This document shows, piece by piece, positions 1 to 26,425 of a stretch of DNA of 64,000 bases. Position 1 is the first letter of the stretch. Each line of letters starts with the position of its first letter. The translations under genes were made by a program, and so were the position numbers. Below the pieces are notes generated by a model. The model saw nothing but the letters and a program-made list of their open reading frames with translations. It did no database searches and was not told where the DNA came from. This stretch comes from an uncultured Clostridia bacterium (lineage in GTDB: Bacteria > Aerophobota > Aerophobia > Aerophobales > B3-G15), in NCBI GenBank assembly GCA_964482715.1, contig CAYZYX010000002.1, forward strand, positions 10,816 through 74,815, written 5' to 3'.

Positions 1-383
1 TTTTTTGGTTGAATCCCGATAATAAAGATTTCACCTATCTGGTTTTTTTTAAAATACTCGAGAAGAAGTGAAAGAGAAAGAGTATGAGTGGAAAACCCTG
101 GCGGAGGATTAGCCTCCCTGAGTAGCTTTATCTCCCCAGGATTTCCACCAAAATCAACAGCATCTACAAGAAAAACTTTTGAGGGTTTTACTTTTACTAT
201 GGGCTCAAGATAATTTTCTGGAAGCTGTTCCCCATTAAAAAGATAGATACCTCTCTTCCGGTCAAATTTTTTCTTTTTGAGTTCCCTGATGAATCTGCAT
301 CCTACTCCATCATCTCCTCTTAGAGGATTACCAATCCCCAGAAAAACTATTTTTTCATTTTCTGATAGGAGGCTTTTTATCAT
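1..383 (-). CDS. hycI: [NiFe]-hydrogenase maturation endopeptidase (HycI/HyaD family), C-terminal part lost at the window edge
   Basis: Manual reverse-complement translation from the ATG at 383..381: MIKSLLSENEKIVFLGIGNPLRGDDGVGCRFIREL...GNPGEIKLLREANPPPGFSTH. This carries the GxGNxxxGDDGxG and S-T-H signatures of hydrogenase C-terminal processing proteases. It is not in the ORF track because it runs off the window. Confidence 0.7.
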   Translation of the reverse strand, partial: MIKSLLSENEKIVFLGIGNPLRGDDGVGCRFIRELKKKKFDRKRGIYLFNGEQLPENYLEPIVKVKPSKVFLVDAVDFGGNPGEIKLLREANPPPGFSTHTLSLSLLLEYFKKNQIGEIFIIGIQPK

Positions 384-428
384 TTGAAGAGAGGATTTAC
401 AGGTAAAATTGTTATAGATAGAAATGTA

Positions 429-1040
429 TTAACCCCATTCTTCCTTCAGAGTAAGCTGTTTTCTACATCGAGGACAGAGGATTCTCAAATTATCAGCTCT
501 TTCCAGAGGAAAAGTTTTATCCCTGGGTCTTTTTTCCCTGATAAGTTCCATCTGGGCAAGAGAGGAAATAAATAGATTGGGATTAGAAAACATGAAAGAC
601 CCTAATCTCTCTCTAACCCAGGCCAGGTGTTTACGTGTGGTAATTGGCTCACCGCAATATTCACAGAAGATAAGTTCATCTTCAATCTGGGTTTGAGCCT
701 GACTTCGGGAAAGAACAGCTAAATCGTATTTAGTGGTAAGTTTTATCCCCTTTTCTGTAAGACAATTTGCCTGACATTGACCGCAAAAGATACAGCGATC
801 ATAGTGCAATATTAACCTTCTTTTTCCACCAGGAGGAGGCTCTTCAATTTTTTCAATTGCCCCCGGGGGACAAACATTGGCACATGCTCCACAGACAACA
901 CACTCCTTTTCGTCAAATTCTGCCTTTCCCCTGTATGTCGGAGGAGCTGGCGAAGGAACTTTGGGAAATTTAGTTGTATAAGGCGGATTTATCAGTGAAG
1001 TTATTGCTTCTTTTAATTCTCTGAGCTTTGGATATTTCAT
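429..1040 (-). CDS. 2x[4Fe-4S] ferredoxin subunit of the membrane-bound hydrogenase (NuoI/HycF/MbhN-like) with an extra C-terminal Cys4 extension
   Basis: Two CxxCxxCxxxC(P) motifs (CVVCGACANVCP and CIFCGQCQANC), plus a C-terminal CEYCGEP...CPRC pair. It is the last gene of the hydrogenase/Mrp operon. Confidence 0.7.
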   Translation of the reverse strand: MKYPKLRELKEAITSLINPPYTTKFPKVPSPAPPTYRGKAEFDEKECVVCGACANVCPPGAIEKIEEPPPGGKRRLILHYDRCIFCGQCQANCLTEKGIKLTTKYDLAVLSRSQAQTQIEDELIFCEYCGEPITTRKHLAWVRERLGSFMFSNPNLFISSLAQMELIREKRPRDKTFPLERADNLRILCPRCRKQLTLKEEWG

Positions 1041-1051
1041 GGTATTTCTCC

Positions 1052-1426
1052 TTAAACCTTTCCCTTTTCCTCTTCATACCTATCTATCACACTTTTTTCC
1101 CAGAGTTTAATCCTGCTCTTGTGAGCGGCATGGGCAATCGCATGAGCAGCTGTGGGAGAACTGAGAATAATAAATAAGATTACCAGCAAACTCTTTACCA
1201 AAAATCCCGCAGCCAGGAAAGTTCCTAAAAGTATAAAGCAAGTTCCCAGAGTTACACATTTTGTAGCTGCCTGAAGTCTATTGTAGACATCAGGTAATCT
1301 CACAAGCCCGATACATCCCAGAAGATCAAATATAACCCCTATAAATATCAGCACCTTCCCGGCAATTACAACTGCTTCATTCATCGAATCTTTTTCCCTC
1401 CAGATATTTGGCAAGGGTAAGGGCAC
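1052..1426 (-). CDS. mrpG: Mrp/Mnh antiporter subunit G-like membrane protein
   Basis: 124 aa with 3 transmembrane helices and the RLPDVYNRLQAATK motif typical of MnhG/PhaG. Overlaps the upstream mrpF. Confidence 0.7.
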   Translation of the reverse strand: MPLPLPNIWREKDSMNEAVVIAGKVLIFIGVIFDLLGCIGLVRLPDVYNRLQAATKCVTLGTCFILLGTFLAAGFLVKSLLVILFIILSSPTAAHAIAHAAHKSRIKLWEKSVIDRYEEEKGKV

Positions 1427-1646
1427 CTAAGAACCCAAGAAGAGCCCAGGCTATTGCAATATCCATAAAATAAGTTCTCGGTGTATAAATGACAAAAAGG
1501 GCACAAAATCCTACTATCAGGATTCCCAGAATATCCACAGCTACAATTCTATCTGCCGCAGTTGGCCCTCTTAACACTCTATAAAGACATAAAAAACAAC
1601 TTGCGATTAAAGGTGCAGCAAATATGGCCGGAATTCCCAGGATCAT
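1377..1646 (-). CDS. mrpF: Mrp/Mnh antiporter subunit F-like membrane protein
   Basis: 89 aa, hydrophobic, with the RGPTAADRIVAVDILG motif characteristic of MrpF. Confidence 0.65.
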   Translation of the reverse strand: MILGIPAIFAAPLIASCFLCLYRVLRGPTAADRIVAVDILGILIVGFCALFVIYTPRTYFMDIAIAWALLGFLGALTLAKYLEGKRFDE

Positions 1647-2131
1647 CCAAAGACCTCCTTAAGAATGGGTTCAAATCTTCTTACAATTTTTTTAGTTGCC
1701 TCTTCCACATCTATTGCTTTAACATTTATCCAGTGCACGTACAGGTATCCATCGTCAGTAAGTTCCACTGTAAGAGTGCCAGGGGTAAGAGTAATGGAAT
1801 TGGCCAGAGCCACCCTGCCCGTAGGAGTGGACAGAGTAGTTTTTACCTTAACAATTCCTGGTTCTATAGGAAGTTTGGGATGAAGCACTCTATAGGCGAC
1901 ATCCAGATTTGCCAGAATACAATAATATAGAAACATGGGTATATAAAGGAGAAGATAAAGCACTCTCTTTATCTGGAAAAAATTCTCTGGATGCTGGACA
2001 AAAAGATCAGCAAACCAGAAAGCAATCCAGATTGAAAGCACAAGTCCTATCAAAACTGAAGGGAAGTATAAAGTCCAGGTTAAAATTAACCAGATGGCAA
2101 AACAAACGATAAAAAGGACAATTTTCTTCAT
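1643..2131 (-). CDS. mrpE: Mrp/Mnh antiporter subunit E-like protein
   Basis: 162 aa with N-terminal transmembrane helices followed by a soluble domain. Sits in the E position of an Mrp-like gene series. Confidence 0.55.
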   Translation of the reverse strand: MKKIVLFIVCFAIWLILTWTLYFPSVLIGLVLSIWIAFWFADLFVQHPENFFQIKRVLYLLLYIPMFLYYCILANLDVAYRVLHPKLPIEPGIVKVKTTLSTPTGRVALANSITLTPGTLTVELTDDGYLYVHWINVKAIDVEEATKKIVRRFEPILKEVFG

Positions 2132-2132
2132 T

Positions 2133-3614
2133 TTATCCTCCCAGAATCAAGGCACTGTATTTGGTCCCCTCTTGAAGAACAGTAACTGCAGGTTCAAAAA
2201 CAGCCTTCATGAGAGGATAAAAAAGAATTCCGGTTCCGATACAAATGATAGCCAATACAATCATGGATATGCACATGGGTGTTGGTACTTCTTTTATCTG
2301 CGCCCACTTTTCTTTAAGAGTGCCAAAAAAGGCATATCTTTGAACCCTGAGATAATAGGCAAGAGTTAAAACTGATACCAGAATAGTCAGCACAGTTAAA
2401 ACAAAGTGCCCGGCCTGAACCAATCCAATAATTATAAAAAGTTTACTCCAGAATCCATTAAAGGGAGGAATACCAGAGATAGACAGTGAGCCAATGGTGG
2501 ATGTGGTACCCGTAACGGGCATAACTTTACTCAGCCCCCCCATTTCCTTTAGTTTTCTTGTGCCTGTTGAGTATTCAACGGCTCCTGAGTTAAGAAATAA
2601 AAGTGCTTTAAAAGATGCATGGTTAAAAAGATGAAAAAGCGCCCCCAAAAGTCCCCAATAATTTCCACATCCCAGTCCAATCATTATGTATCCAATTTGA
2701 GAAATAGACGAGTAGGCAAGAAGCCTTTTAAAATCGGACTGACGAATAGCTAAAAGTCCGCCTCCAATCATGGAGATAACACCTAAAATCATTAAAGTCC
2801 AGGATAACTGAAGGGTCATTCCAAAGACATTAAAGAAAACACGAGTTATGGTATAAACGCCCAGGGCTTTAATCAAAACACCTGAAAGCATTGCTGAAAT
2901 AGGAGCCGGGGCGCTGGGATGTGCATCAGGTAGCCAGGCATGAAAAGGAATAATGGCCGCTTTAAGTCCAAACCCTGCCAGAAACAGGACAAGTGAAAAA
3001 GAGAGGAGTAAATTCTTTTTTCCCTGTATGATACTGCCAATATCAGCCATATTTAAGCTTCCCGTAAGTCCGTAGAGAAGTCCAACTGAGAAGAGAATGA
3101 GGATAGAAGCAACCGAGCCCATAACCATGTACTTGAAAGAGGCTTCCAGTTCTTCTGCTTCCACTCCAAAGGCAACCAAAGCATAAGAGGCAATAGAGGC
3201 AATCTCTAAAAATACGAATAGATTAAAAAAATCTCCAGTAAGAACTACACCATTCATACCGGCCAGCATCAACATGAAAAGGCTATAAAATCTGTGTTTG
3301 GCGGTAAATCTTTTCATGTAGCTTACCGAATACAGGGTGGCAAAGAAAGCTATGGTATTTACTACGATAAGCATTAAAATAGATAACCCATCAAGGACAA
3401 GATTTATTCCCTTTGGAGGTAACCACTTACCCATAATATAAACCAGAACCTGATTATCTTTAATCAAGGCCAGTAAAACAAGGGATAAAACTGTCAAACA
3501 GAATGTGGCTCCGTTAGCCACCAGGTCACAGGCAATCTCCTTTGCCTTACCCATTAAAGCAAGCACAAAAGCAACCCCCAAGGGAATGGCTATGAATAGA
3601 GGAATTATGTTCAT
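2133..3614 (-). CDS. mrpD: Antiporter-like subunit (MrpD/NuoN/HyfB family), proton/sodium-pumping membrane subunit
   Basis: 493 aa polytopic protein with FHAWLPDAHPSAPAPISAMLSG, the conserved complex-I antiporter motif. Confidence 0.8.
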   Translation of the reverse strand: MNIIPLFIAIPLGVAFVLALMGKAKEIACDLVANGATFCLTVLSLVLLALIKDNQVLVYIMGKWLPPKGINLVLDGLSILMLIVVNTIAFFATLYSVSYMKRFTAKHRFYSLFMLMLAGMNGVVLTGDFFNLFVFLEIASIASYALVAFGVEAEELEASFKYMVMGSVASILILFSVGLLYGLTGSLNMADIGSIIQGKKNLLLSFSLVLFLAGFGLKAAIIPFHAWLPDAHPSAPAPISAMLSGVLIKALGVYTITRVFFNVFGMTLQLSWTLMILGVISMIGGGLLAIRQSDFKRLLAYSSISQIGYIMIGLGCGNYWGLLGALFHLFNHASFKALLFLNSGAVEYSTGTRKLKEMGGLSKVMPVTGTTSTIGSLSISGIPPFNGFWSKLFIIIGLVQAGHFVLTVLTILVSVLTLAYYLRVQRYAFFGTLKEKWAQIKEVPTPMCISMIVLAIICIGTGILFYPLMKAVFEPAVTVLQEGTKYSALILGG

Positions 3615-3629
3615 CTTGTCCCCCTGTGA

Positions 3630-3965
3630 TTATCCCTTTAGTCTTCTTATTTCAGTAACATCAAAGGTATGGTACTTTTCATAGATTCGTATACACATGG
3701 CCACAATAAAAGCAAGTGTAGCAATGCTGATTACAATAGCTGTTAAAACCATAGCCTGGGGCAATGGATCAACAAAATTTGCCTTTCTGGCTCCTTCAAC
3801 CACTATAGGAGCAACCCCGGCTTTCCGGTACCCCAGAAGAACCAGGAAGAAGTTAACCGCATACTCCATAATAACGATACCCATTACTATTTTCAAGAGA
3901 TTTTTTTTGGTAATTACACAGTAAAGTCCGATTAGAAAAATAACAAAGGATAGGAAAAAGACCAT
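3630..3965 (-). CDS. mrpC: MrpC/NuoK-like small membrane subunit
   Basis: 111 aa with 3 transmembrane helices, placed between the MrpB-like and MrpD-like genes. Confidence 0.65.
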   Translation of the reverse strand: MVFFLSFVIFLIGLYCVITKKNLLKIVMGIVIMEYAVNFFLVLLGYRKAGVAPIVVEGARKANFVDPLPQAMVLTAIVISIATLAFIVAMCIRIYEKYHTFDVTEIRRLKG

Positions 3966-3967
3966 TT

Positions 3968-4432
3968 TTACCTTCCTCCTTTCCCTGTAGTGATTCTAAA
4001 CATAATAAGAGTCACAAATACTGCAAAGATTCCTCCGCTAACCTTCAGTCCTATGCCTATGTTAGCAAGAGGGATAAACCCTGCCGAAAGAATCCTCAAA
4101 GGTTCGCCCTTGGGGAGAAAATTAAAGAAAAACCATCCTCCCGCTGCTATTCCAATGAGAGCGAGGGAGAGAAAAATAAGAGCTCCAATACTTTCCAGAG
4201 TCGAAGCTGTGGAAAGTTTTAGCTTCTGAGAAGCCATTTCTCTACCGAAAGCCAGAATAAGAAGAATAAAAGCTGAAGCCACGATAACCCCACCTGGAAA
4301 TCCTCCTCCAGGAGTAAGATGCCCGTGCAAGACCATGTATATTCCAAATAAAACAATTGGGGGAGAAACAAACTTGGCTACAATTTTAACTATATTGGTC
4401 ATACCTTTTTCTTTTTGTTTTAAGGGACTCAT
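3968..4432 (-). CDS. mrpB: MrpB-like (MnhB domain) membrane subunit
   Basis: 154 aa, hydrophobic, glycine-rich, in the MrpB position. The boundary with the upstream gene is an ATGA overlap. Confidence 0.55.
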   Translation of the reverse strand: MSPLKQKEKGMTNIVKIVAKFVSPPIVLFGIYMVLHGHLTPGGGFPGGVIVASAFILLILAFGREMASQKLKLSTASTLESIGALIFLSLALIGIAAGGWFFFNFLPKGEPLRILSAGFIPLANIGIGLKVSGGIFAVFVTLIMFRITTGKGGR

Positions 4433-4953
4433 CTATGCTTCCTCCCGATTTCTCTCAGGACTACGATAGCTCCAAGAATAGAGGTAAAAAGAACTGTTGC
4501 CTCTCCTAAGGTGTCATAAGCCCTGAAATCAAGAAGAACAGAGGTCACCAGATTTGCTGACCCTGTTTGTTCCAGCCCTTTTTCAATATATTCTTTTGCA
4601 ACTTTCATTACCGGTGAACCAAACTCAGGGAGTAGACTTAAAGCTCTAAAAGCAAAAGCAGCAAAAACGACGATAAAAATAATCACCGAAACCAGTGCAA
4701 AAACCTCTCTTCTTCCTTTTATCTCAGAAAGGTCTTTTTCAATACCTGTGGCTCTAATTAGAATTACTAAAGCGATAACTTCCACCACAATCTGGGTAAT
4801 GGCGCAATCAGGAGCTTGAAGATAAAGAAATGCTACGCAGAGGGCAAGTCCCACAACAGCGAGAGATATAACTGCCGACAGGAGATATCTTGTTTGAACA
4901 GCTACTATGGAACCTACAATCATCAAAATTGCCAGAGCGTAAATTTCCCACAT
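4429..4953 (-). CDS. MnhB-domain membrane protein (MbhD/MbhE-like, MrpA C-terminal-domain-like)
   Basis: 174 aa polytopic protein directly downstream of the MrpA-like gene. Mbh complexes carry equivalent small subunits. Confidence 0.45.
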   Translation of the reverse strand: MWEIYALAILMIVGSIVAVQTRYLLSAVISLAVVGLALCVAFLYLQAPDCAITQIVVEVIALVILIRATGIEKDLSEIKGRREVFALVSVIIFIVVFAAFAFRALSLLPEFGSPVMKVAKEYIEKGLEQTGSANLVTSVLLDFRAYDTLGEATVLFTSILGAIVVLREIGRKHR

Positions 4954-4969
4954 TTTTTATCCTCCAGGT

Positions 4970-6892
4970 TTACACCAGAAAAACCAGAAGTAAGATAACA
5001 AGACCTAAAAGAGACCAGGCAAGATAGGTATGAAGAACACCACTGTGTGCAAGAGAAGCTCCTTTACCAGCAAGTAAGACCACCCAGGATAAACCTCTCC
5101 ACACATACTCCACTAATCTATCAAGACCCAGGAGAAAGTAAGCAACCCAACGAGCAAATTTAAGCACCCCTTGATAAATGTCAAGACTTCCTTTTTCAAT
5201 AGCTTGGTAAAAACCCCTTAAACCGTAAAAATTCTTAATCGTATCGTAAAAATCAGCTCCTGATACCTTCATCTCCAGAGTAAACTTTTCTCCACCTATG
5301 TAACTTTCTGATTCTCTTAAACGTTTAGTCCTTCCAGCAAGGTAGATTATTATCCCCACAATTATTCCGATAATTATAAGTAAAGTAGCAACTCCCGGCT
5401 GCCACCACCCTATCCAGGCCTGAGGAGAAGAAACTTCAGGCACAGCTGAAGCAATGAAAAGTTTTATAGGGAATTGGTAAGCAAAAATCCCAAAAGCCAC
5501 ACATAAACCTGCCAGGATTAGAACAGGAATAGTCATACCCATTCCAGGCTCTTTTATTTTCATTTCCAGTGATTTTTGCTGAACTTCTTCGCTTTCCACT
5601 CCAAGAAAAATTCCATGAATTAACTTCATAAAACTTGCCAAAGTTAAGGCAGACCCAAACATAGCCGCCACCAGCCATATAATCCAGCTTCCTCCACCGG
5701 TTATCTTTCCTACTTCCACAACACCCTGGTAAATCATCCATTTAGAGAAAAAGCCGTTAAAAGGTGGAACACCAGAAATTGAAAGGGAAGCTATCAAAAC
5801 TCCTATAAAGGTAAGAGGCATAAACTTTGCCAGTCCCCCTAACCGGTCAATATCAGTAGTTTTTAAGTTATGTTCCACAGATCCTCCTCCAAGGAACAGG
5901 CAGGATTTATATATGGCATTATTCACCATATGGAATATACCCCCAGCAATTCCTACAGGAATTGCTGTCCCTATTCCCAGGACCATATAACCAACCTGGG
6001 ATATTGCATGGTAGGAAAGTAGTTTTTTTAGATCATGCTGAACTAAAGCCATAAATACTGCTGCTACGATAGTAACAGAGCCAATAAACATAAGAAGGAG
6101 AGAAAGAGGACCATTTGGTATTAATTTAAAGAAATCAAGGCATATTCTGGCCAAAAGATAAATTCCTAATAATTTATCCAGCGAAGCCGGCAAGAAGGCC
6201 ATGATTGGGGTTGGAACCTTCTCAGCAGCATCGGGTATCCATCCATGAAACGGCATCGCTCCCGCTTTTGCAATGGCTCCCATCATAAGCAGGACAAAAG
6301 CTGCTACAGCCAGTCCTGAGTTTATGGGAAGAGGTTGAAATCCACTCATATTAAGCGTCCCACTTAATTTGTAAAGGAAGAAAATACCAAGAATCAACGC
6401 AAAATCAGCAGAGCCAATTATAAAGAGGCCCTTGGTAGCAACTTTTGATGAACCCAGAGACAACATGCAATACAGAAGGATACCCAGCATACCCCAGAAA
6501 AGCAAAAATATAAGGAAGTTCGCTGCCAGAACCGCCCCAATGGCACAGGATGTGGTTAAGAGAAGGTAAAAATAATACTCCCTGGTCCGTCTTAAGCTGG
6601 ACATAAATTTTACAGAGAAAAGAGAGATAAGTAAGGAAAAAAGAGAGATAAAGAGAAGGATAAAAGAGGAAAATCGGTAACTCTGGAGACTAAAGTTTAT
6701 TCCCGGAAAGCTCAGCCAGGAATGATTAAAAGAAAGTTCACCGCAGCCAAAGATGAGGATGGACAAGATAAGAACCACCAGGCTTACCCCTACACTGATG
6801 ACTTCTTTAATCCTTTTTGTCGGAATTAAAAGACAGATGATCCCACCTATTAAAGGCAGTATAATTGGATAGAGAATTAAAGAAGAATTCAT
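4970..6892 (-). CDS. mrpA: MrpA/NuoL-like antiporter subunit (long family member)
   Basis: 640 aa, more than 16 predicted transmembrane helices, with the motif FHGWIPDAAEKVPTPIMAFLPASLDK matching the NuoL/MrpA core. Confidence 0.8.
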   Translation of the reverse strand: MNSSLILYPIILPLIGGIICLLIPTKRIKEVISVGVSLVVLILSILIFGCGELSFNHSWLSFPGINFSLQSYRFSSFILLFISLFSLLISLFSVKFMSSLRRTREYYFYLLLTTSCAIGAVLAANFLIFLLFWGMLGILLYCMLSLGSSKVATKGLFIIGSADFALILGIFFLYKLSGTLNMSGFQPLPINSGLAVAAFVLLMMGAIAKAGAMPFHGWIPDAAEKVPTPIMAFLPASLDKLLGIYLLARICLDFFKLIPNGPLSLLLMFIGSVTIVAAVFMALVQHDLKKLLSYHAISQVGYMVLGIGTAIPVGIAGGIFHMVNNAIYKSCLFLGGGSVEHNLKTTDIDRLGGLAKFMPLTFIGVLIASLSISGVPPFNGFFSKWMIYQGVVEVGKITGGGSWIIWLVAAMFGSALTLASFMKLIHGIFLGVESEEVQQKSLEMKIKEPGMGMTIPVLILAGLCVAFGIFAYQFPIKLFIASAVPEVSSPQAWIGWWQPGVATLLIIIGIIVGIIIYLAGRTKRLRESESYIGGEKFTLEMKVSGADFYDTIKNFYGLRGFYQAIEKGSLDIYQGVLKFARWVAYFLLGLDRLVEYVWRGLSWVVLLAGKGASLAHSGVLHTYLAWSLLGLVILLLVFLV

Positions 6893-6904
6893 AGTTCCTC
6901 CTCT

Positions 6905-8320
6905 TTATTTAAACATTTGAGCTACAGCTTGTGCTGGAAGTCCTAAAACCTGGCCTATAAAAATACCAATAGCAAGAGATATTATTCCAAGGAAAACTAC
7001 ACACCCCACAAGCAGTCTCCCTGGCTTAGTCTGTGAAGTTTTTACTTCTTTCCCCATGAATATCCCATTGAAGAGACGAAAAAGATAAAGTAAGGTGAAA
7101 ACAGCTGCTACTATAGCTAAAGTGGCAACCCAGAAATGACCCTCTTGCACGGTTCCCATTACAACCATGAGTTTGGCATAAAAGCCGCCAAAAGGTGGAA
7201 GACCAGCTATGGAAAAAACAGAAAACAGAAAGCCAATACCAAAAACTGGCGATGTTTTCATCAAACCACCAAGCCTGGTTATATCTCTTGTTCCATATCT
7301 TCTTTCAACCACCCCAGCACCAAGGAAAAGTCCCGCCTTGGCAATGGCATGAACCATGAAATATAAAAGTCCAGCCAGTATTCCTATTTCCTTAAGTAAG
7401 GCAAATCCAAGTAAAATATATCCCACCTGGGAGACAGTAGAGTAAGCAATGATTTTCTTAATATCCTTTTCCAGAAGAGCGGCACCAGCTCCAATGAGAG
7501 AGGAAATAACAGCCAGAGAGAGAATCCAATTCCAGGAAATTCCACCCATCCAGGCAAATATTCTCAAAAACCCCAGAAGACCGACTTCAACCTCCACTCC
7601 CGATAAAATAGCACTCATAGGAGAAGGAGCTACTGGATGGGCATCAGAAAGCCATGTGTGTATAGGGAGAATTGCTGATTTGGCAATAATTCCCAGAAAA
7701 ATCAGGAAAAAGATCACATTTAGGTTATCAGTGGTAAAACCTCTAAGTTGCACAATATCAAGTGTCCCACTTTTTACATAGAGAAGAGTAAATCCCATGA
7801 GCATAAAAGATGAACCTAAAAAGGTCATCAGAAAGGTCTTATCAGCAATCCAGACAATTCTTTCTTCTCTATAAAATCCCACCAGTCTCCAGGTTGCAAG
7901 AGCAGCTATTTCCCAGAAGATATAAAAGAGGATAAGGTTCCTGGAAAAAGAAATTCCCAGAAGTGAGGCTATCATAAGGGAAGTCATAAAGTAATATTCT
8001 CTCTGATTTTCATAATCTTTCATATAAGAGAGAGAATAAACAAGAGCAACAAGTCCTATAAAGGAAAAAATCAAAGCAAATACAAGACTTATTCCATCGG
8101 CAAACAGAGAAAAAGCAAAGTAGTTACCCGGGGTAGAGAGAATATCTACTTGCAAAACTTTTCCATTAAGAATAGATCCGATTAAGAACAGAAGAAAAAG
8201 GAAAGAAGCAGCAATAATACCTACTGACCACCAATCACGAACTTTTTTAGGGAAAACAAGACAAAGAAAAGAACCTATAAGAGGCACGAATATAGCTGCC
8301 ATAAGGAAAAAAGTTAACAT
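6905..8320 (-). CDS. Antiporter-like subunit (MrpD/NuoM/HyfD/HyfF family)
   Basis: 471 aa with the IHTWLSDAHPVAPSPMSAILSG motif. This is the third antiporter-like subunit of the operon. Its boundary with the hydrogenase large subunit is an ATG/TGA overlap. Confidence 0.8.
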   Translation of the reverse strand: MLTFFLMAAIFVPLIGSFLCLVFPKKVRDWWSVGIIAASFLFLLFLIGSILNGKVLQVDILSTPGNYFAFSLFADGISLVFALIFSFIGLVALVYSLSYMKDYENQREYYFMTSLMIASLLGISFSRNLILFYIFWEIAALATWRLVGFYREERIVWIADKTFLMTFLGSSFMLMGFTLLYVKSGTLDIVQLRGFTTDNLNVIFFLIFLGIIAKSAILPIHTWLSDAHPVAPSPMSAILSGVEVEVGLLGFLRIFAWMGGISWNWILSLAVISSLIGAGAALLEKDIKKIIAYSTVSQVGYILLGFALLKEIGILAGLLYFMVHAIAKAGLFLGAGVVERRYGTRDITRLGGLMKTSPVFGIGFLFSVFSIAGLPPFGGFYAKLMVVMGTVQEGHFWVATLAIVAAVFTLLYLFRLFNGIFMGKEVKTSQTKPGRLLVGCVVFLGIISLAIGIFIGQVLGLPAQAVAQMFK

Positions 8321-9537
8321 TTGTATCTGTCCTCCCTTTCAAAATAAGAACCCAGAAGTTTTCTTGTTTTTTCCTGAGAAAGTCTTATAAGATCACTTCC
8401 ATCCATTAGGACTTTACCAGACTTTTTATCGACAACTCTCATCATCCTTTCAGTGCAACAGTAACAAGGATCAATAGAGGCTAAAATCAATGCAGCATCG
8501 GCAACACTTTCACCGGGCACCGTAGCTTTACAGGTTGGAAGATTCACGTAAGTTGGAGCTCTTACCTTAAGCCTTACTGGAGTGTTAGAGCCATCAGAAC
8601 GGACATAGTGGAAAGTTTCTCCTCGTGGAGCTTCATGGTGACCTTTTCCTTCTCCAGGTGGCATCTCCTTAATTTTAACCGCAATATCCCCCTTGACTTT
8701 CTTTAATTTTTCAAGACATTGTCTTATTATCTTCACTGATTCAAGACATTCAAGAAGTCTCACCACAGTTTTAGCAAAAACATCTCCCTCTTTCTGAGTA
8801 ATTACATTCCATTCTACGAGGTCATAGGCTGCGTAAGGATCGTCTTTCCTTACGTCAATGGCCACTCCTGAACCTCGAGCAGTAGGACCCACGGCACAGT
8901 ATTTTATGGCATCCTCTTTAGTAAGGATTCCCACACCTTTAAGACGTGCAGCAAGAACAGGGTCATCAAGGGCGGCTTTGGTGATCATATCTACTTTTCT
9001 CTCTACTTCATCCAGAACTTTTAAGAAGTAAGGTATGTCCTCTTCTTTTATGTCTCTTCTAACACCTCCTGGTTTTAACATGGCATAATGATTTCTATTC
9101 CCAGTAACAAGTTCAAAAAGTTCTAAAACTGGCTCTCGGTATTTCCAAATCCACATCCACAGAGTGTTATAACCAATAAAGTGTCCAGCAAGACCCGCCC
9201 ATAAAAGATGAGAATGAATCCTTTCAAGTTCTCCAACGATACTCCTTATGTATTTTGCTCGCTCAGGTATCTCCACTCCGGCAAGATCTTCCTGAGCGTT
9301 ACAGTTGGCAATTGGATGTGATGTAGAACATATTCCACAGATCCTCTCTACCAGGAAAATAACTTGGTCCCAGGTCATTCGTTCACCAATCTTTTCAATA
9401 GCCCGGTGGTTATATCCAATATGGATGTCAATATCTAAAACCTTTTCCCCTTCGACTTCAAGTTCAAAATACTCCGGTTCTTCCTGTAAAGGATGATAGG
9501 GACCTATTGGAATTATAGTCTTTCGATTTCGACTCAT
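8314..9537 (-). CDS. Group-4 (energy-converting) [NiFe]-hydrogenase large subunit (NuoD/HycE/EchE/MbhL-like)
   Basis: N-terminal Ni-binding motif RICGICSTSH (RxCGxCxxxH) and C-terminal DPCYCCTER (DPCxxCxxR, the HycE type). A roughly 40-aa tail follows that would be removed by a HycI-type protease. 407 aa. Confidence 0.9.
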   Translation of the reverse strand: MSRNRKTIIPIGPYHPLQEEPEYFELEVEGEKVLDIDIHIGYNHRAIEKIGERMTWDQVIFLVERICGICSTSHPIANCNAQEDLAGVEIPERAKYIRSIVGELERIHSHLLWAGLAGHFIGYNTLWMWIWKYREPVLELFELVTGNRNHYAMLKPGGVRRDIKEEDIPYFLKVLDEVERKVDMITKAALDDPVLAARLKGVGILTKEDAIKYCAVGPTARGSGVAIDVRKDDPYAAYDLVEWNVITQKEGDVFAKTVVRLLECLESVKIIRQCLEKLKKVKGDIAVKIKEMPPGEGKGHHEAPRGETFHYVRSDGSNTPVRLKVRAPTYVNLPTCKATVPGESVADAALILASIDPCYCCTERMMRVVDKKSGKVLMDGSDLIRLSQEKTRKLLGSYFEREDRYKC

Positions 9538-10020
9538 TTATTTCTCCTGCTTCGTATTATCGGTAAACTGGGTGTCTCTAAAGTCACATCTTAAAGGATA
9601 CCAATCTTTAGGCCAGCTCTCGGCAGCAAGAAGAGGTCTCGGATCAGGGTGATTTAGAAATCTAACTCCTAAGAGATCTTGAATTTCTCTTTCAATAAAA
9701 ACAGCTCCCGTGATATAAGGAGTAATAGATTCTATCTCACATTTATCCTTGGGGACAAGAGTCTTTACTGTGACTACTTTTCCTCCATGGTGGTCAAAGG
9801 AAAAGTGATAAAGAATCTCAATTCCCCGGGGAGTATCAATTCCGGAAGCGGTGATAAATCTTGCCTTGCCTTTTTCAAAAAGATACCTTGCTACCGCAAC
9901 AATATCACCTTTTTTTATTGTAAAATAATGTCTATTAGCAGTCCTTTCCTCCCAGGAGATTATCTTTTCTTTTAAAGATTCCTTTATCTGAATAATAATA
10001 TCTTTCTCCCTTTTAGTCAT
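9538..10020 (-). CDS. NuoC/HycE-N/MbhK-like hydrogenase subunit (30 kDa complex-I subunit family)
   Basis: 160 aa, positioned between the small and large subunits as in Ech/Mbh/Hyc operons. Confidence 0.75.
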   Translation of the reverse strand: MTKREKDIIIQIKESLKEKIISWEERTANRHYFTIKKGDIVAVARYLFEKGKARFITASGIDTPRGIEILYHFSFDHHGGKVVTVKTLVPKDKCEIESITPYITGAVFIEREIQDLLGVRFLNHPDPRPLLAAESWPKDWYPLRCDFRDTQFTDNTKQEK

Positions 10021-10031
10021 CTGTTTTTCCT

Positions 10032-10472
10032 CTATTTTGAGTTAGAAGGTAATTTACCGTTAAGACTCTGGATAAGTTTTACCACACCATCAATTATTGC
10101 CTCGGGCTTTGGAGGACATCCAGGAATATAGGCACTTACAGGAATAACTTTATCGAAAGGTCCAGCCATATTATACCCTGTTCGAAATATACCTCCACTA
10201 CAAGCACAGCCTCCGACTGCCACTACCAGTTTTGGCTCAGGCATCTGTTCATAAACTCTCTTCACACGAGGTAAACACTTTTTATTGACTATTCCTGTTG
10301 CCAGAATAACATCAGCATGGCGAGCACTTCCAACCAGGACTATCCCGAATCTTTCCACATCAAATCTGGGAGTGAGTAAATCCAGTATTTCAATATCACA
10401 ATTATTGCAGGAACCTGCTGAGAGATGGTAAACCCACAGAGATTTCTTAAGAGAAAACTTGGCTAAACCCAT
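10032..10472 (-). CDS. Group-4 [NiFe]-hydrogenase small subunit (NuoB/HycG/MbhJ-like)
   Basis: CNNCDIE, VGGCACSGG and IPGCPPKPE motifs provide the four cysteines of the proximal [4Fe-4S] cluster in NuoB-type subunits. 146 aa. Confidence 0.85.
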   Translation of the reverse strand: MGLAKFSLKKSLWVYHLSAGSCNNCDIEILDLLTPRFDVERFGIVLVGSARHADVILATGIVNKKCLPRVKRVYEQMPEPKLVVAVGGCACSGGIFRTGYNMAGPFDKVIPVSAYIPGCPPKPEAIIDGVVKLIQSLNGKLPSNSK

Positions 10473-10510
10473 TTTTTTCTCCCTTTAGTTATATAAAAAA
10501 TTTAATAAAA

Positions 10511-11449
10511 TCATATGCCGAGCAGAGCCAGTATAAATCCGATTATTGCCAGAGGAAACATTCTAAGCCAGAAAAACTTAAGGGCCTGGTCTATTCTCAG
10601 ACGAGGATTGGTATTTTTAACAATAATAATCAAAAGTAGAATGACAAAATATTTGATTATTGACCAGAGAGCTTGTATCCCATCAAAACGCATTCCTCCA
10701 GCAAATATTGTAATTAAAAATACCGGGTAAGTGAAAAGCATCATAGCTTTTGTCAGCTTGAATATGCCGAGGGGTGGCCCGGAATACTCAATCAAAGGTC
10801 CAGCCATAATTTCCTGCTCTGCTTCAGGAATATCAAAGGGAACATAGGCAAGTTTTGCCTGGATACACACAAAAGTTACTATTAAAGCAATAAAAGAGGA
10901 GAGGTGATGGGTAAACATCATTCCATTATTTATCTGGTACAGGACAATAGAACCTATTTTTATATCTTTAATAGCAACAATTGGAGTAAAGATAGCTATA
11001 ATGAAGGGAAGTTCGTCAGCAAGCATGAGTTTCATCTCTCTACTTGCACCCAGGGAAGCAAGTGGATTTCCCGAGGCCGATCCTCCCAGTATGATGGCCA
11101 GAGAAGGAAGAACAGAAAGATAGAGAATAACAATTACATCCCCCAAAAATGATGTACCAGGATTAAGATTCATTTGCCAGAGAATAAGTGAAACAAGGGT
11201 AATTCCAACAAGACCCATTATTGGAGCCAATAGAAAACTAATTTTTCTTGCTCCAGCAGGAAGAATGGTTTCTTTTCCCATAAGTTTAAAGAAGTCCACA
11301 AAATTCTGATACCAGGGAGGCCCAACTCTCCACTGGAGACGCGCGGTAAGTTTTCTATCGATCCAGGCAACCAGAAGTCCTCCCACTGCAGTAAAAATAA
11401 AACCCGGGAAAACAATAAAAGAAACCAGAGCAAACAAAATCTCGTTCAT
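10511..11449 (-). CDS. NuoH/HycD/MbhM-like membrane subunit of the energy-converting hydrogenase
   Basis: 312 aa with 8 predicted transmembrane helices, in the NuoH position directly upstream of the NuoB-like gene. Confidence 0.75.
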   Translation of the reverse strand: MNEILFALVSFIVFPGFIFTAVGGLLVAWIDRKLTARLQWRVGPPWYQNFVDFFKLMGKETILPAGARKISFLLAPIMGLVGITLVSLILWQMNLNPGTSFLGDVIVILYLSVLPSLAIILGGSASGNPLASLGASREMKLMLADELPFIIAIFTPIVAIKDIKIGSIVLYQINNGMMFTHHLSSFIALIVTFVCIQAKLAYVPFDIPEAEQEIMAGPLIEYSGPPLGIFKLTKAMMLFTYPVFLITIFAGGMRFDGIQALWSIIKYFVILLLIIIVKNTNPRLRIDQALKFFWLRMFPLAIIGFILALLGI

Positions 11450-11952
11450 CCCTGTTTTTTCTCCTCTTGAGGTAGTTCTCTCTTCCAGGGTGTTACCTTA
11501 ACAAAAACCTCCCCGATTTTAAAGATATTATTTTCTTTATCTTCTACAAATTCCCCATATTTTATTGCCCCATCACCAGTTTGCACACATAGAGGCTGCT
11601 CACCTTCTTTCAATCTTCCCTGACAGAGATCACAGGTAAAAGTTAGAAAAGGGATTATCTCCATGTGAATTGTTCCAAAAGGGCAGGCTACTGCACAGGA
11701 CTTACAAGAGACACACAGACAATTATTTCTCCTGATAATTCCAGTTTCTTCCACTCTTTCCAGAGCTTCGTATCTACAGGCATTTATACAGGGGTGCTCT
11801 TCACACTTTCTACACACTATTTGAAAAGCGAGCCATTCTCTTAGTTGTAAGATCCCGTTATTGTTAAAATGATAAGGATAGCTACACTTAATATTTAATT
11901 TTTTCCAGTTCTGATTTATAAAATCCAGATCGATAAAGAGAGACTTATTCAA
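11446..11952 (-). CDS. Poly-[4Fe-4S] ferredoxin-like electron-transfer protein (HycB/HydN-like)
   Basis: 168 aa with at least 14 cysteines arranged in CxxCxxxxCxxxC, CxCxxCxxCxxxCP and CxxC clusters. It lies between the AsrB/HydG-like gene and the NuoH-like gene. Confidence 0.6.
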   Translation of the reverse strand: MNKSLFIDLDFINQNWKKLNIKCSYPYHFNNNGILQLREWLAFQIVCRKCEEHPCINACRYEALERVEETGIIRRNNCLCVSCKSCAVACPFGTIHMEIIPFLTFTCDLCQGRLKEGEQPLCVQTGDGAIKYGEFVEDKENNIFKIGEVFVKVTPWKRELPQEEKKQG

Positions 11953-11961
11953 CTTTTCCTC

Positions 11962-12795
11962 CTAATCCCAAATTGCTGGAATATCTTTGATTTGTTCGTA
12001 GGTAAAAACTGGTCCATCTCGACAAACCAAAAATCTCCCCAGTTGACAATGTCCACATTTGCCCACTCCACAGGACATATTCTTTTCCATTGAGAGATAT
12101 ATATTGGCAGGTTGATATCCCACATCGAGAAGTTTCAAGGTGGTGAATTTCATCATTATGGGTGGACCACAAACAACAACCGGATTTTCTTGAACATTGC
12201 TTATTTCTTCTTCTATTCCATCAAGAGTGGTAGTTACAAGTCCCACCTTTCCTTTCCATGATTCATCCCCTTTATCAACTGTTATACGAAAACTTACCTT
12301 TCCTCTGTACTTTTCTTGCCACTCATCCAGTATGGCCTTCTTATAAACAATATCCTGAGGTGTTCTTGCACCATAGCATAACACCACCTTCCTGTAACTT
12401 TCGAGGTTATGAGTGAGGGACAAAAAGAGTGATCTTAAAGGGGCAAGACCCACTCCTCCACCCACAATCAAGATTTCTTTGTTTTTCCACTCCGCAATAG
12501 GATATTCATTACCGAATGGCCCCCGAAGTCCAACTACATCGTTTTCCTTTAAGTTATGAAGAGCTGAGGTAATTTTTCCCACTCTCATTATGGTTAGTTC
12601 TATTTTCTCTTTTTCATAGGGAGAAGAGCTGGGAGTAAAGGGACCTTCACCTACCCCGGGAACTGTAAGTTGAACAAATTGACCAGCTTTAAATTCCAAA
12701 TGATTTTCTGGTTTGAGAACAAAAGTCTTTATTTGAGGTGTTTCTTCAATTACCTCAAGGATATTTGCTTTTACTGGTTGATAAGGATTTTTCAT
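11962..12795 (-). CDS. FAD/NAD(P)-binding oxidoreductase with C-terminal [2Fe-2S] (sulfhydrogenase gamma/HydG, AsrB, PyrK family)
   Basis: 277 aa. Has a flavin reductase fold motif (RVGKITSAL ... ILIVGGGVGLAP) and a C-terminal CGVGKCGHCQLG cluster typical of HydG/AsrB. Confidence 0.7.
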   Translation of the reverse strand: MKNPYQPVKANILEVIEETPQIKTFVLKPENHLEFKAGQFVQLTVPGVGEGPFTPSSSPYEKEKIELTIMRVGKITSALHNLKENDVVGLRGPFGNEYPIAEWKNKEILIVGGGVGLAPLRSLFLSLTHNLESYRKVVLCYGARTPQDIVYKKAILDEWQEKYRGKVSFRITVDKGDESWKGKVGLVTTTLDGIEEEISNVQENPVVVCGPPIMMKFTTLKLLDVGYQPANIYLSMEKNMSCGVGKCGHCQLGRFLVCRDGPVFTYEQIKDIPAIWD

Positions 12796-13859
12796 TTTTC
12801 CTGCCCTATCGGGATCTTTTTTTCTATAGCAAGGTCTCTAAATACCTCACGCATGTCTATCTTCCCGATACAAACAGATATACATCTGCCACAACCTGTA
12901 CAGGCATCAAGATTTATATTTTCAGGAAAAAAGTAAAATTTACAGAAAAGTCTGTTAGCAAACCTCTGATGTAGCCAAGGACGAGGATTTGCTCCTCCCG
13001 CCACTCTGGCAAATCCAGTTAGAAGACAGGCATCCCAGAGATAGTACCTCTGGTATTTATCTCCAGTTTTCACATCTGAAAGCAAAAAACATCTGCAAGT
13101 TGGACATATCTGATTACAGCCTCCACAATCAACACACTTTTCGCTGTATTTTAACCATACAGGCGAGTCATAGGTATCTTTTATTAGCTCCCGATAGGGA
13201 GTGTTTACTTTCAAATCTTTGTTAATTCTGTTAACCAGCTTTATTACTTTTTCTCTGTTTCTCTGTTTCTTACTTATAGCTTTTTCTTCCACATCGGTAA
13301 AAAACCCGGGATTTTTCTGAACCACCTCCTCTCCCTTACTTGAACCAACCTCCACTACATATCCTTCTTCCAGAGAGGACAGGTTAAGATCAAATCCTTC
13401 TTGAGGGTAAGGATTTCCTCCCACCAGTGTGCAAAAACAACTATTATCAGGTTCTTTGCAGTCACTACTTATAATTAGTGTATTTTCTCGAGCCTGAATA
13501 TAAAACGGATCTTTGTATTCCCTGCCAAATTCTTCCCCCTGGTAAACGCTATCTGTAATCTTTAAAGCTTTAAGATCACAGGCCTTTACTCCCAGCAGGA
13601 TTCTTTTTTCACTTTTTTTACTTGACTCTGAAGAGGAGACAAAGTATTCGGCAACTTTTCGATAGGCCGGCGTAAAAAAAGACTTTAAAGGATGAACAGC
13701 TCTTTTTGTATCCAGTACTATATTCCTGATATTTTCAGAATTTATCTTCTCGTATAAGAGAAATTCTTCCTTTTTTAAAGGCGCATAGACTTGATATTCC
13801 TGACCGAGTAACTCAACCCACTTAAAGAAATTATCTTTTGAGAGGAAATATTGCTTCAT
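12792..13859 (-). CDS. Iron-sulfur subunit (sulfhydrogenase beta/HydB, AsrA family)
   Basis: 355 aa with CVDCGGCNQICPTCRC and CTGCGRCISVC [4Fe-4S] motifs. Overlaps and precedes the HydG-like gene, as in hydBG/asrAB pairs. Confidence 0.6.
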   Translation of the reverse strand: MKQYFLSKDNFFKWVELLGQEYQVYAPLKKEEFLLYEKINSENIRNIVLDTKRAVHPLKSFFTPAYRKVAEYFVSSSESSKKSEKRILLGVKACDLKALKITDSVYQGEEFGREYKDPFYIQARENTLIISSDCKEPDNSCFCTLVGGNPYPQEGFDLNLSSLEEGYVVEVGSSKGEEVVQKNPGFFTDVEEKAISKKQRNREKVIKLVNRINKDLKVNTPYRELIKDTYDSPVWLKYSEKCVDCGGCNQICPTCRCFLLSDVKTGDKYQRYYLWDACLLTGFARVAGGANPRPWLHQRFANRLFCKFYFFPENINLDACTGCGRCISVCIGKIDMREVFRDLAIEKKIPIGQEK

Positions 13860-13943
13860 TTTCTTCCCTTCTTGTGAAAAATATCACAATTAATTTTAAA
13901 CCACAGAAACATTTTTGTCAAGTTATCAACCAGAACGAATCAA

Positions 13944-13959
13944 TCTGTGATTATTTTCA
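13944..13959. promoter_or_regulatory. CRP/FNR-family type palindrome TGTGA-N6-TCACA in the hydrogenase-operon promoter
   Basis: The + strand reads cTGTGAttatttTCACAa, a perfect inverted repeat. It is centred on the predicted +1 of the minus-strand promoter at 13963..13989. Confidence 0.45.
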
Positions 13960-13962
13960 CAA

Positions 13963-13989
13963 AATTATACCACAAAAAAATTTTATGTC
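13963..13989 (-). promoter_or_regulatory. Sigma-70-type promoter for the hydBG-fd-hydrogenase-mrp operon
   Basis: Minus strand carries TTGACA (13989..13984), a 16-nt spacer, then TGGTATAAT (extended -10, 13968..13963). It lies in the 145-nt gap between the DRTGG gene and the hydB-like gene. Confidence 0.55.
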
Positions 13990-14004
13990 AAAAAGTTCTG
14001 CAAA

Positions 14005-25957: not shown

Positions 25958-26425
25958 CTATCGCTCTTTGTATTTGTTTAGGATTTTCTCAACCTGAACC
26001 GGGGTTACTCTTGCAAAGTAATTGCCATCAACTACCACAAGAGGTCCCAATGCGCAGGCTCCCAGACAGTTCACTGTTTCTAAAGTAAAATTAAGATCAG
26101 GTGTAGTTTCTCCCGGTTTGATATCTAACTTCCTTTGAATCTCTTCAAGAATTTTCGGTGATCCTCGTACATGGCATGCTGTTCCCATACACACATATAT
26201 GGTATGTTTACCTCGAGGTTTTAAACTGAAAGCTTTATAAAAAGTGGCTACTGCATAAATTTGAGGTAAAGGAACATTTAATTTGTCTTTTACTCTAAGT
26301 AATGCCTCCCGGGGCAAGTAATTATATTCTCGCTGTATATCCTGAAGAATGGGAATAAGCATACTTTTATCTTTATGGTATTTATCAATAACCCTATCGA
26401 CTGTTTCCAAAACTTGTGGACTCAT
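25958..26425 (-). CDS. NuoE/HoxE/HndA-like [2Fe-2S] thioredoxin-fold subunit
   Basis: 155 aa with CMGTACHVRG ... CLGACALGP. Confidence 0.8.
   Translation of the reverse strand: MSPQVLETVDRVIDKYHKDKSMLIPILQDIQREYNYLPREALLRVKDKLNVPLPQIYAVATFYKAFSLKPRGKHTIYVCMGTACHVRGSPKILEEIQRKLDIKPGETTPDLNFTLETVNCLGACALGPLVVVDGNYFARVTPVQVEKILNKYKER

Follow-up and report, generated by a model that had tools for sequence, protein, structure and literature searches.

A predicted Rex-controlled operon joins a HydB/HydG-like module to an Mrp-linked group-4 [NiFe]-hydrogenase in an Aerophobetes contig

The operon and its products

We analysed a stretch of 64,000 nucleotides (hereafter the window) from contig CAYZYX010000002.1 of an uncultured Aerophobetes bacterium. 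At one end of it, 18 closely packed minus-strand genes run from position 13859 to the window edge (position 1), according to the open reading frame list and its translations. They encode a group-4 [NiFe]-hydrogenase, a HydB/HydG-like flavin and iron–sulfur (Fe-S) module and a set of Mrp-type membrane subunits (Table 1), which we propose may form one complex linking NAD(P)H, H2 and an ion gradient. Genes were assigned by Pfam, NCBIfam and PDB comparisons. An earlier note, made from the letters of this DNA, had listed the same gene set, and every gene was found again on the minus strand, at the positions it had given. It had also taken the genes for a single operon, and this is borne out: hydB and hydG overlap by 4 nt, hydG is separated from the ferredoxin gene by 9 nt, the ferredoxin gene overlaps nuoH by 4 nt, and no terminator-like site was found in these three junctions. 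Transcription of hydB and hydG apart from the rest is ruled out by the same spacing and by the terminator-free junctions, and the genes are predicted to be translationally coupled. Two labels had to change. The supposed polyferredoxin gene encodes a 168-residue HycB/CooF-type protein with 12 invariant cysteines. As for the two genes called MrpB-like, one is MrpB indeed, while the other is the C-terminal part of MrpA, in the form of an MbhD/MbhE fusion.

The catalytic core has the features of group 4, namely a NuoB-like subunit with a single proximal [4Fe-4S] cluster accompanied by NuoC-, NuoH- and NuoI-like subunits. Both nickel-binding motifs, RICGICSTSH and DPCYCCTER, can be read in the translation of the large subunit, where 44 residues follow the arginine of the second motif, and both are unchanged in 29/29 related loci. 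The four cysteines for the proximal cluster are likewise invariant (23/23 NuoB-like sequences). The best PDB match of the large subunit is MbhL of P. furiosus (6cfw_L, 5e-87), followed by HycE (1.6e-77). Features of maturation accompany the core: the large-subunit tail is cleavable, hycI is the last gene before the window edge (it encodes 153 residues in public versions of the same contig, where hypF comes next), and hypF lies downstream in L001 and L002. The nickel-binding motifs, together with the cleavable tail and the hycI and hypF genes, lead one to expect an active hydrogenase. The claim that this is a real hydrogenase is thus confirmed in the large subunit for both nickel-binding CxxC pairs and for the tail. 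A non-hydrogenase of the Mbx/MBS type is ruled out by the retained nickel ligands, and an enzyme of the formate hydrogenlyase (FHL) type, coupled to formate dehydrogenase, by an operon in which Pfam finds no molybdopterin gene.

The HydB-like and HydG-like proteins are, as had been supposed, truly homologous to SHI-beta and SHI-gamma, the NADPH-oxidising subunits of P. furiosus sulfhydrogenase I (SHI). The former aligns over its full length with SHI-beta of P. furiosus (PDB 9nez_B, E=1e-50), with all cluster cysteines matched, and the latter with SHI-gamma (9nez_C, E=9e-57), again full length and with both the cluster cysteines and the GGGVGLAP motif matched. Fifteen cysteines of the HydB-like protein are invariant in an alignment of 10 orthologues, and GGGVGLAP and the four [2Fe-2S] cysteines of the HydG-like protein are kept in 21/21 sequences. 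The NCBIfam scores of the HydB-like protein are 218 bits against a cut-off of 690 for ShyB, 198 against 750 for HydB and 132 against 323 for AsrA; those of the HydG-like protein are 236 against 289 for AsrB and 201 against 650 for HydG. Since every score stays below its equivalog cut-off, the pair is, judging by these profiles, a related but separate clade within the known family of NAD(P)H:Fe-S oxidoreductases. Neither the alpha/delta dimer of group 3b nor an AsrC partner was found in the operon or in the related loci examined.

In the FHL of E. coli, HycB and HycF relay electrons from a soluble dehydrogenase to the small subunit. Relay subunits of both kinds are present here. The 168-residue ferredoxin matches FdnH, HycB4 of HDCR and HycB of FHL in the PDB, and its 12 cysteines, invariant in 19/19 sequences, would fit three [4Fe-4S] clusters. 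The NuoI-like subunit is closer to HycF (7z0s_F, 3e-16) than to MbhN (4e-11) and carries eight cysteines for two [4Fe-4S] clusters. Because of these HycB-like and HycF-like subunits, the electron-entry side looks like that of FHL, with a flavoprotein apparently replacing formate dehydrogenase. The NuoI/HycF-like subunit also has a C-terminal extension with an additional CxxC...CxxC arrangement (C126, C129, C189 and C192), invariant in 13/13 orthologues; these four cysteines may form an additional metal site.

Homologues of MrpA to MrpG share the operon with the hydrogenase core, which is a feature of Mrp-linked Mbh enzymes. The 640-residue MrpA-like subunit matches models of NuoL and HyfB over their whole length and thus includes the C-terminal extension. 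In its fifth transmembrane helix (TM5), glycine occupies the position of a glutamate that is kept in MbhH and in other antiporter-like subunits. The first MrpD keeps the TM5 glutamate and has a glutamate where MrpD of M. smegmatis (7d3u_D) has its TM8 lysine; the lysines of TM7 and TM12 are kept. The earlier note had made three pumps a defining trait of the enzyme. This did not hold, as the first MrpD is absent from several close relatives (L015, L016, L019, L023, L027, L028 and L030), and the third pump is a variable feature of the family. In one further Aerophobetes locus (AUK101, L008; 10001-12547), the large subunit is followed by a 78-residue MrpD fragment, NuoI and HycI, and the whole Mrp set is missing; this may be a minimal form that occurs in nature, or else the assembly is at fault.

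Table 1. Genes and control elements of the operon in the window, from the promoters to the window edge
Feature	Position	Strand	Supporting match
Promoter P1, sigma-70: TTGACA, 16 nt, TG-extended TATAAT (12/12)	13964..13991	-	
Rex box 1, TTGTGAAAATAATCACAG, 12/14, over +1 of P1	13945..13962	inverted repeat	
Promoter P2, sigma-70: TTGACA, 17 nt, TAAAAT (11/12)	13893..13921	-	
Rex box 2, TTGTGATATTTTTCACAA, 13/14, over +1 of P2	13872..13889	inverted repeat	
hydB-like; SHI-beta/ShyB/AsrA-like Fe-S subunit, 355 aa	12792..13859	-	Pfam Fer4_22
hydG-like; SHI-gamma/AsrB/PyrK-type FAD + NAD(P)H + [2Fe-2S] subunit, 277 aa	11962..12795	-	Pfam FAD_binding_6 + NAD_binding_1 + DHODB_Fe-S_bind
HycB/CooF/FdnH-type ferredoxin subunit, 168 aa	11446..11952	-	Pfam Fer4_11
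NuoH/MbhM-like membrane subunit	10511..11449	-	Pfam NADHdh, E=4.6e-68
NuoB-like hydrogenase small subunit	10032..10472	-	Pfam Oxidored_q6
NuoC-like subunit	9538..10020	-	Pfam Complex1_30kDa
[NiFe] large subunit (NuoD-like), 407 aa	8314..9537	-	Pfam Complex1_49kDa + NiFeSe_Hases
Antiporter-like subunit 1, first MrpD, MbhH-like, 471 aa	6905..8320	-	Pfam Proton_antipo_M
Antiporter-like subunit 2, MrpA N-terminal part, NuoL/HyfB-like, 640 aa	4970..6892	-	Pfam Proton_antipo_M
MbhD+MbhE fusion, MrpA C-terminal part	4429..4953	-	Pfam
MrpB	3968..4432	-	Pfam MnhB domain
MrpC/NuoK-like subunit	3630..3965	-	Pfam Oxidored_q2
Antiporter-like subunit 3, MrpD, 493 aa	2133..3614	-	Pfam Proton_antipo_M
MrpE	1643..2131	-	Pfam MNHE
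MrpF	1377..1646	-	Pfam MrpF
MrpG (public gene call starts later, giving 110 aa)	1052..1426	-	Pfam PhaG
NuoI/HycF-like two-cluster subunit, 203 aa	429..1040	-	Two-cluster Pfam Fer4; NCBIfam formate hydrogenlyase Fe-S subunit
hycI maturation endopeptidase, cut by the window edge	1..383	-	Pfam HycI

Conservation and predicted Rex control

Gene order in related loci, including loci found from HydB, was mapped by tblastn of the window proteins. Loci with the order hydB-hydG-fd-nuoHBCD-mrp-nuoI-hycI were found in at least six phyla, with examples in Aerophobetes, Desantisbacteria, Latescibacteria, Endomicrobia, Omnitrophota, Chitinispirillaceae and other metagenome-assembled genomes (MAGs). Both hydB and hydG are present in 20/20 loci whose sequence extends 5′ of nuoH. 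Over 190 pairs, pairwise identities correlate with those of the large subunit at r = 0.91 for HydB and r = 0.94 for HydG; the NuoD–NuoH correlation, for comparison, is 0.77. The tie of the HydB/HydG pair to the hydrogenase is therefore one of conservation across phyla and of co-inheritance with the large subunit. Loci from Endomicrobium and Omnitrophota taxa (L017–L023, L019 among them) have large subunits 62-65% identical to that of the window. No cultured host was found among the top 120 matches of either the large subunit or HydB, all of which come from MAGs or metagenomes. In one locus (L028), nuoH and nuoB are separated by genes for a CbiM/NikM-type transporter and a PDGLE-domain protein (8050-9064), an insert that probably serves dedicated nickel uptake.

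Upstream of hydB we found two promoters, each with a Rex-like inverted repeat over its +1 position. The earlier note had placed a promoter and a palindromic operator at its +1 here; the promoter matches the sigma-70 consensus perfectly and a second one was additionally found downstream of it, and the operator is confirmed, duplicated and can now be named as a predicted Rex operator. The consensus quoted in PMC6391272 is TTGTGAANNNNTTCACAA, and we scored sites against TTGTGAA-N4-TTCACAA (14 scored positions). Across the window, 10 Rex-like sites with at most three mismatches were found where 6.8 were expected, that is, no enrichment over chance. Because these counts are not above chance, the argument for Rex rests on position and conservation. 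Four other Aerophobetes loci have tandem boxes 5′ of hydB, three Endomicrobia loci have boxes of 13-14/14 there, and perfect or near-perfect boxes are found in 14 related loci. In six relatives (L013 and L027–L031), a rex gene (Pfam Put_DNA-bind_N + CoA_binding) is located directly 5′ of hydB, and each has one perfect 14/14 box, the sole site of at least 12/14 in a locus of 16-21 kb. From base composition, about 2e-4 perfect sites would be expected per 20 kb.

No rex gene was detected in the 64-kb window by tblastn with a B. subtilis Rex query; the same query found rex in L013, where Pfam confirms it, and in the Aerophobetes locus L008 (17643-18239). A CRP/FNR-type reading of the TGTGA-N6-TCACA palindrome was set aside, since the flanks fit Rex and rex adjoins the operon in six relatives. 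As Rex leaves the DNA when NADH/NAD+ rises, the operon is most likely induced by NADH excess through the predicted sites. The tandem promoters with their predicted Rex operators and the family-wide link to Rex appear to be new here.

The adjoining acs locus and variant loci

The operon abuts an acs cluster, in agreement with the earlier placement at the distal end of that locus. From its promoter, the cluster reads cooC, carbon monoxide dehydrogenase (CODH), a CooF-like protein, NuoE-like and NuoF-like proteins and a 2Fe-2S/4Fe-4S protein, then acsB, acsC, RACo, a second cooC, acsD, acsE and a DRTGG protein. The adjacency recurs in another Aerophobetes locus (L026) and, independently, in two unrelated MAGs (L029 and L030). 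The last gene of the cluster (14005-15099, minus strand) combines AAA_26 and DRTGG domains and resembles the N-terminal part of phosphotransacetylase without the catalytic domain; its position is conserved in L026. The CODH gene (26975-28885, minus strand) is followed inside the acs operon by the CooF-like ferredoxin (26394-26954), the NuoE-like [2Fe-2S] protein (25958-26425), a NuoF-like FMN/NADH protein with extra 4Fe-4S domains (24025-25944, minus strand) and the 2Fe-2S/4Fe-4S protein (23245-24024, minus strand). Judging by this order, the CODH may be wired to a flavoprotein that binds NAD(P)H and is possibly bifurcating.

The acs promoter consists of TTGACA (29730-29725), a spacer of 17 nt and TATACT (29707-29702), followed by a Rex-like box, TTGTTAAATATATCACAA, at 29693-29676 (12/14). 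The Wood–Ljungdahl genes and the hydrogenase may thus share Rex control. Upstream of this promoter, also on the minus strand, are a second RACo-like corrinoid activase gene (31265-32842) and one for a TauE/SafE-family exporter (30455-31252). About 6 kb past the acs locus (35724-37900, minus strand) lie molybdenum cofactor genes, a MoaA-like radical SAM gene and moeA, which would fit with the genome encoding a molybdo- or tungsto-enzyme at another place. Pfam detects no molybdopterin-domain gene in the window operon; among the loci, one occurs only in L029 and L030, upstream of rex. There, genes for a molybdopterin oxidoreductase, a second Fer4_22 protein (HydB/FdhB-like), MobA and FdhD stand between acsE and rex-hydB (4664-9210 in L029, 5096-9273 in L030). 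This insert resembles the arrangement of formate dehydrogenase-like (Fdh-like) and AsrA-like genes described in Saganbacteria.

A different upstream region was found in the Aerophobetes locus Ae_b3b (L012). Divergent from hydB, it encodes (298-5558) both subunits of a NiFe hydrogenase, the large one of 507 residues, along with a histidine kinase of the PAS type and a sigma-54 response regulator, a set that is, by its predicted composition, of the HupUV/HoxJA-like H2-sensing kind and hints at an uptake role in that locus. The hydB of L012 has an in-frame stop near its start.

Proposed function, alternatives and meaning

The earlier note held that such an architecture had not been described. It had in fact been drawn before, in silico, in Saganbacteria and Elusimicrobia, and a related group-4b variant has followed. 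Matheus Carnevali et al. (2019) reported an "enigmatic" Saganbacteria group-4 hydrogenase with Mrp subunits, a molybdopterin protein and an "oxidoreductase module" of cooF-, asrA- and asrB-like genes, with relatives in Omnitrophica and Zixibacteria. Meheust et al. (2020) named an "Mbh-Mrp-oxidoreductase type" in predicted acetogenic Elusimicrobia and stated that its function was unknown. These clusters share with ours the AsrA-, AsrB- and CooF-like proteins, the NuoB/C/D/H/I homologues and the Mrp subunits. That of Saganbacteria has a molybdopterin (Fdh-like) subunit, whereas the window operon has none, and a link to Rex was not reported in either paper. In Front Microbiol 2026 (PMC13582414), homologues of SHI-beta and SHI-gamma were described in group-4b clusters together with Fdh-like proteins, and a bifurcation of H2, NADP(H) and an unknown substrate was proposed from AlphaFold models. 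In common with the window operon, these have the SHI-type pair on an energy-converting group-4 hydrogenase with NADP(H) coupling proposed; they differ by HyfC/HyfE-like membrane subunits and by an Fdh-like third branch that is often catalytically dead, where the window operon has a full Mrp set. A review of complex-I-like enzymes makes no mention of an NAD(P)H-linked Mbh, and a literature search combining group 4g, Rex and NADH returned no characterisation. The window operon is therefore best described as a member of a family already known from genomes, for which the functional idea is reasonable and the architecture is on record. What is added here is an Aerophobetes member without the Fdh-like branch, the co-inheritance of HydB/HydG, the FHL-like relay, the variable third pump and the Rex link.

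Comparison with characterised enzymes places each part of the operon in a familiar setting. Mbh of P. furiosus (6cfw, group 4d) has the same NuoB/C/D/H/I core, an MrpD-like MbhH, MbhD/E and MrpB/C/E/F/G-like subunits, but it has a single antiporter-like subunit, takes electrons from free ferredoxin and lacks HydB/HydG, the HycB-like protein and the NuoL/MrpA-like subunit. FHL-1 and Hyf of E. coli (7z0s, group 4a) share the HycB + HycF relay, a tail processed by HycI and a soluble dehydrogenase on the relay; there, the molybdoenzyme FdhF is plugged in and the arm is HycC/D or HyfB-F, in contrast to a flavoprotein and MrpA-G in the window operon. The pair of P. furiosus SHI (group 3b, 9nez) and of AsrAB is homologous over its full length, with all cofactor ligands, but its partner is a soluble alpha/delta dimer or AsrC and not a membrane group-4 enzyme. 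Complex I, finally, also has an NADH-type input, a wire of Fe-S clusters, a NuoB/C/D/H/I junction and three antiporter-like subunits, one of which is NuoL-like. It uses a NuoEFG input and a quinone pocket, whereas the window operon has HydB/HydG, a Ni-Fe site and MrpE/F/G; NuoE/F/G are missing from the operon, and NuoE/F-like genes are found in the neighbouring CODH cluster.

We hypothesize, with middling confidence, that the operon encodes a Rex-controlled, reversible, ion-gradient-coupled NAD(P)H:H+ oxidoreductase, built as a single Mbh-type group-4 complex with a full Mrp module. The starting points were observed: gene content, cofactor motifs, conservation, co-inheritance, matches to the Rex consensus and rex adjacency. 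From these we infer the assembly of the complex, its electron path, its ion coupling and its direction; the coupling of NAD(P)H to H2 and the translocation of ions would follow from homology. The electron-entry wire would not be a site for free ferredoxin. Electrons from NAD(P)H would enter at the FAD and [2Fe-2S] cluster of the HydG-like subunit and cross the Fe-S clusters of the HydB-like one; three clusters in the HycB-like ferredoxin and then two in the HycF-like NuoI would carry them on to the proximal cluster of NuoB and from there to the Ni-Fe site.

The standard potentials (E0′) are -320 mV for NAD(P)+/NAD(P)H and -414 mV for H+/H2. From these values, H2 formation from NAD(P)H is calculated to cost about +18 kJ/mol at 1 bar H2 and to become exergonic below approximately 1e-3 to 1e-4 bar. 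The reaction NAD(P)H + H+ <-> NAD(P)+ + H2 would run near equilibrium, and the membrane arm could therefore couple it to a H+ or Na+ gradient in either direction. Rex would repress transcription and be released as NADH/NAD+ rises. Given derepression at high NADH/NAD+, the main role is most likely that of a redox valve through which surplus NAD(P)H would be vented as H2. At the H2 levels of sediments, venting could conserve energy, and at higher levels the ion gradient would pay for it. Where H2 is abundant, the reverse direction could supply NAD(P)H for the adjacent Wood–Ljungdahl genes. Rex control would favour venting; uptake is kept in play by the neighbouring acs genes and by the variant with an H2 sensor.

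In favour of this hypothesis are the strong homology of HydB/HydG to NADPH-oxidising SHI subunits, the FHL-like relay pair, the tight gene junctions, the recurring gene order, the co-variation with the large subunit, the predicted Rex boxes with rex next to hydB in relatives, and the signs of an active hydrogenase. Several points weigh against it. Both proteins of the module score below the equivalog cut-offs given above, and a preference for NADH or NADPH is not readable from the YGA(R/K)(T/S)PxD segment, to which the NADH-specific NqrF has a similar motif. Two of the three antiporter-like subunits are substituted at a canonical charged position, and about 18 kJ/mol would not pay for each antiporter-like subunit to move an ion; some of the Mrp subunits probably swap Na+ for H+, as proposed for Mbh. 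Instead of Rex boxes, L012 has the H2-sensor-like hydrogenase, kinase and sigma-54 activator upstream. Our search found no biochemical study of any family member, and the literature places relatives among "presumably ferredoxin-dependent" enzymes: Mrp-linked hydrogenases of Endomicrobium and of Omnitrophota/Cloacimonadota are filed in HydDB group 4g, reported to be polyphyletic, and the L017–L023 loci, which come from the same taxa, may represent these enzymes. Rex also controls ferredoxin-dependent NiFe hydrogenases, such as Ech of Caldicellulosiruptor bescii (PMC6391272), and Rex control is therefore no proof that NADH is the substrate.

Ferredoxin also defines the best of the alternatives, which we nevertheless consider unlikely. 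The enzyme would be a ferredoxin-dependent, H2-evolving hydrogenase of the Mbh type in which HydB/HydG provides a second exit or entry, so that electrons of ferredoxin and NAD(P)H would be confurcated onto protons or the complex would work, alongside its hydrogenase activity, as an ion-coupled ferredoxin:NAD(P)+ oxidoreductase. The proximity of the large subunit to the ferredoxin-dependent MbhL of P. furiosus and the group 4g filing of relatives point this way, and the energy of ferredoxin is a better match for an ion-pumping arm. A branched Fe-S network ending in SHI-gamma has moreover been modelled for the group-4b clusters, with bifurcation or confurcation proposed (PMC13582414). However, the HycF-like NuoI is paired with a HycB-like partner, which in FHL is the electron-entry side, and the operon has neither a third catalytic partner nor a known bifurcating-type flavin site, its HydG being of the PyrK/NfnA type. 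An Fdh-like third branch is also missing from the window.

More doubtful still is an H2-uptake enzyme in the service of the Wood–Ljungdahl pathway, which would reduce NAD(P)+ with ion pumping or, driven by the gradient, reduce low-potential acceptors. It is reasonable to consider it where the operon abuts the acs cluster (the window, L026, L029 and L030), and the Rex-like box of the window acs promoter fits the same picture, as do the Elusimicrobia with the "Mbh-Mrp-oxidoreductase type", which are predicted acetogens, and the sensory-type NiFe hydrogenase, PAS kinase and sigma-54 activator divergent from hydB in L012. Yet derepression at high NADH suits a consumer of NADH better than a producer, and Endomicrobia loci have the operon with perfect Rex boxes, the Endomicrobiaceae being described as sugar fermenters. 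The gain would also be small, only about 18 kJ/mol at 1 bar H2 and much lower at the H2 levels of sediments.

It is very improbable that the HydB/HydG pair serves a sulfur substrate (polysulfide or S0, once proposed for "sulfhydrogenase", or sulfite, the substrate of AsrABC) in a membrane H2:sulfur oxidoreductase or an NAD(P)H:sulfur reductase: ShyB/HydB and AsrA/AsrB are among the best NCBIfam matches and relatives are publicly annotated as "anaerobic sulfite reductase subunit A", but the scores are far under the AsrA/AsrB/ShyB cut-offs, no AsrC or sirohaem subunit is present in the operon or the related loci examined, and the large subunit has its nickel ligands, unlike the sulfur-reducing MBS. 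We give equally little credence to HydB/HydG as an independent soluble NAD(P)H:ferredoxin-type oxidoreductase that is merely co-transcribed; gene order alone is no proof of assembly and the module is promiscuous, being known with group-3b hydrogenases and with AsrC, but here every locus has it in the same place, directly ahead of the HycB-like gene and nuoH, the genes overlap at their start and stop codons, and it co-varies strongly with the large subunit.

Returning to the NAD(P)H:H+ oxidoreductase, its most specific form is one we hold only tentatively: an NADH:H+ oxidoreductase that is coupled to the ion gradient and independent of ferredoxin, a "complex I that respires protons", in which a module other than NuoEFG is mounted on an Mrp-Mbh scaffold under a dedicated Rex. 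The formation of H2 from NADH is uphill, and the known solutions are electron-confurcating soluble hydrogenases and routes via ferredoxin. The idea is not new in outline, as the gene cluster appears in three earlier in-silico papers. The Rex connection offers a simple experimental handle on it. If true, the enzyme would be a convergent, independent counterpart of the way in which an NADH-driven respiratory complex arose from an ancestral hydrogenase, and it bears on how complex I gained its NADH module. Through it, many uncultured fermenters, syntrophs and acetogens would also be able to link their NADH pool, H2 and the membrane potential directly and reversibly. Should the NAD(P)H link be real, this widespread family would close a gap in anaerobic bioenergetics, and models of redox balance, H2 thresholds and energy yields would change, which is relevant to the Aerophobetes, Omnitrophota, Elusimicrobia, Latescibacteria and Desantisbacteria of sediments and groundwater.

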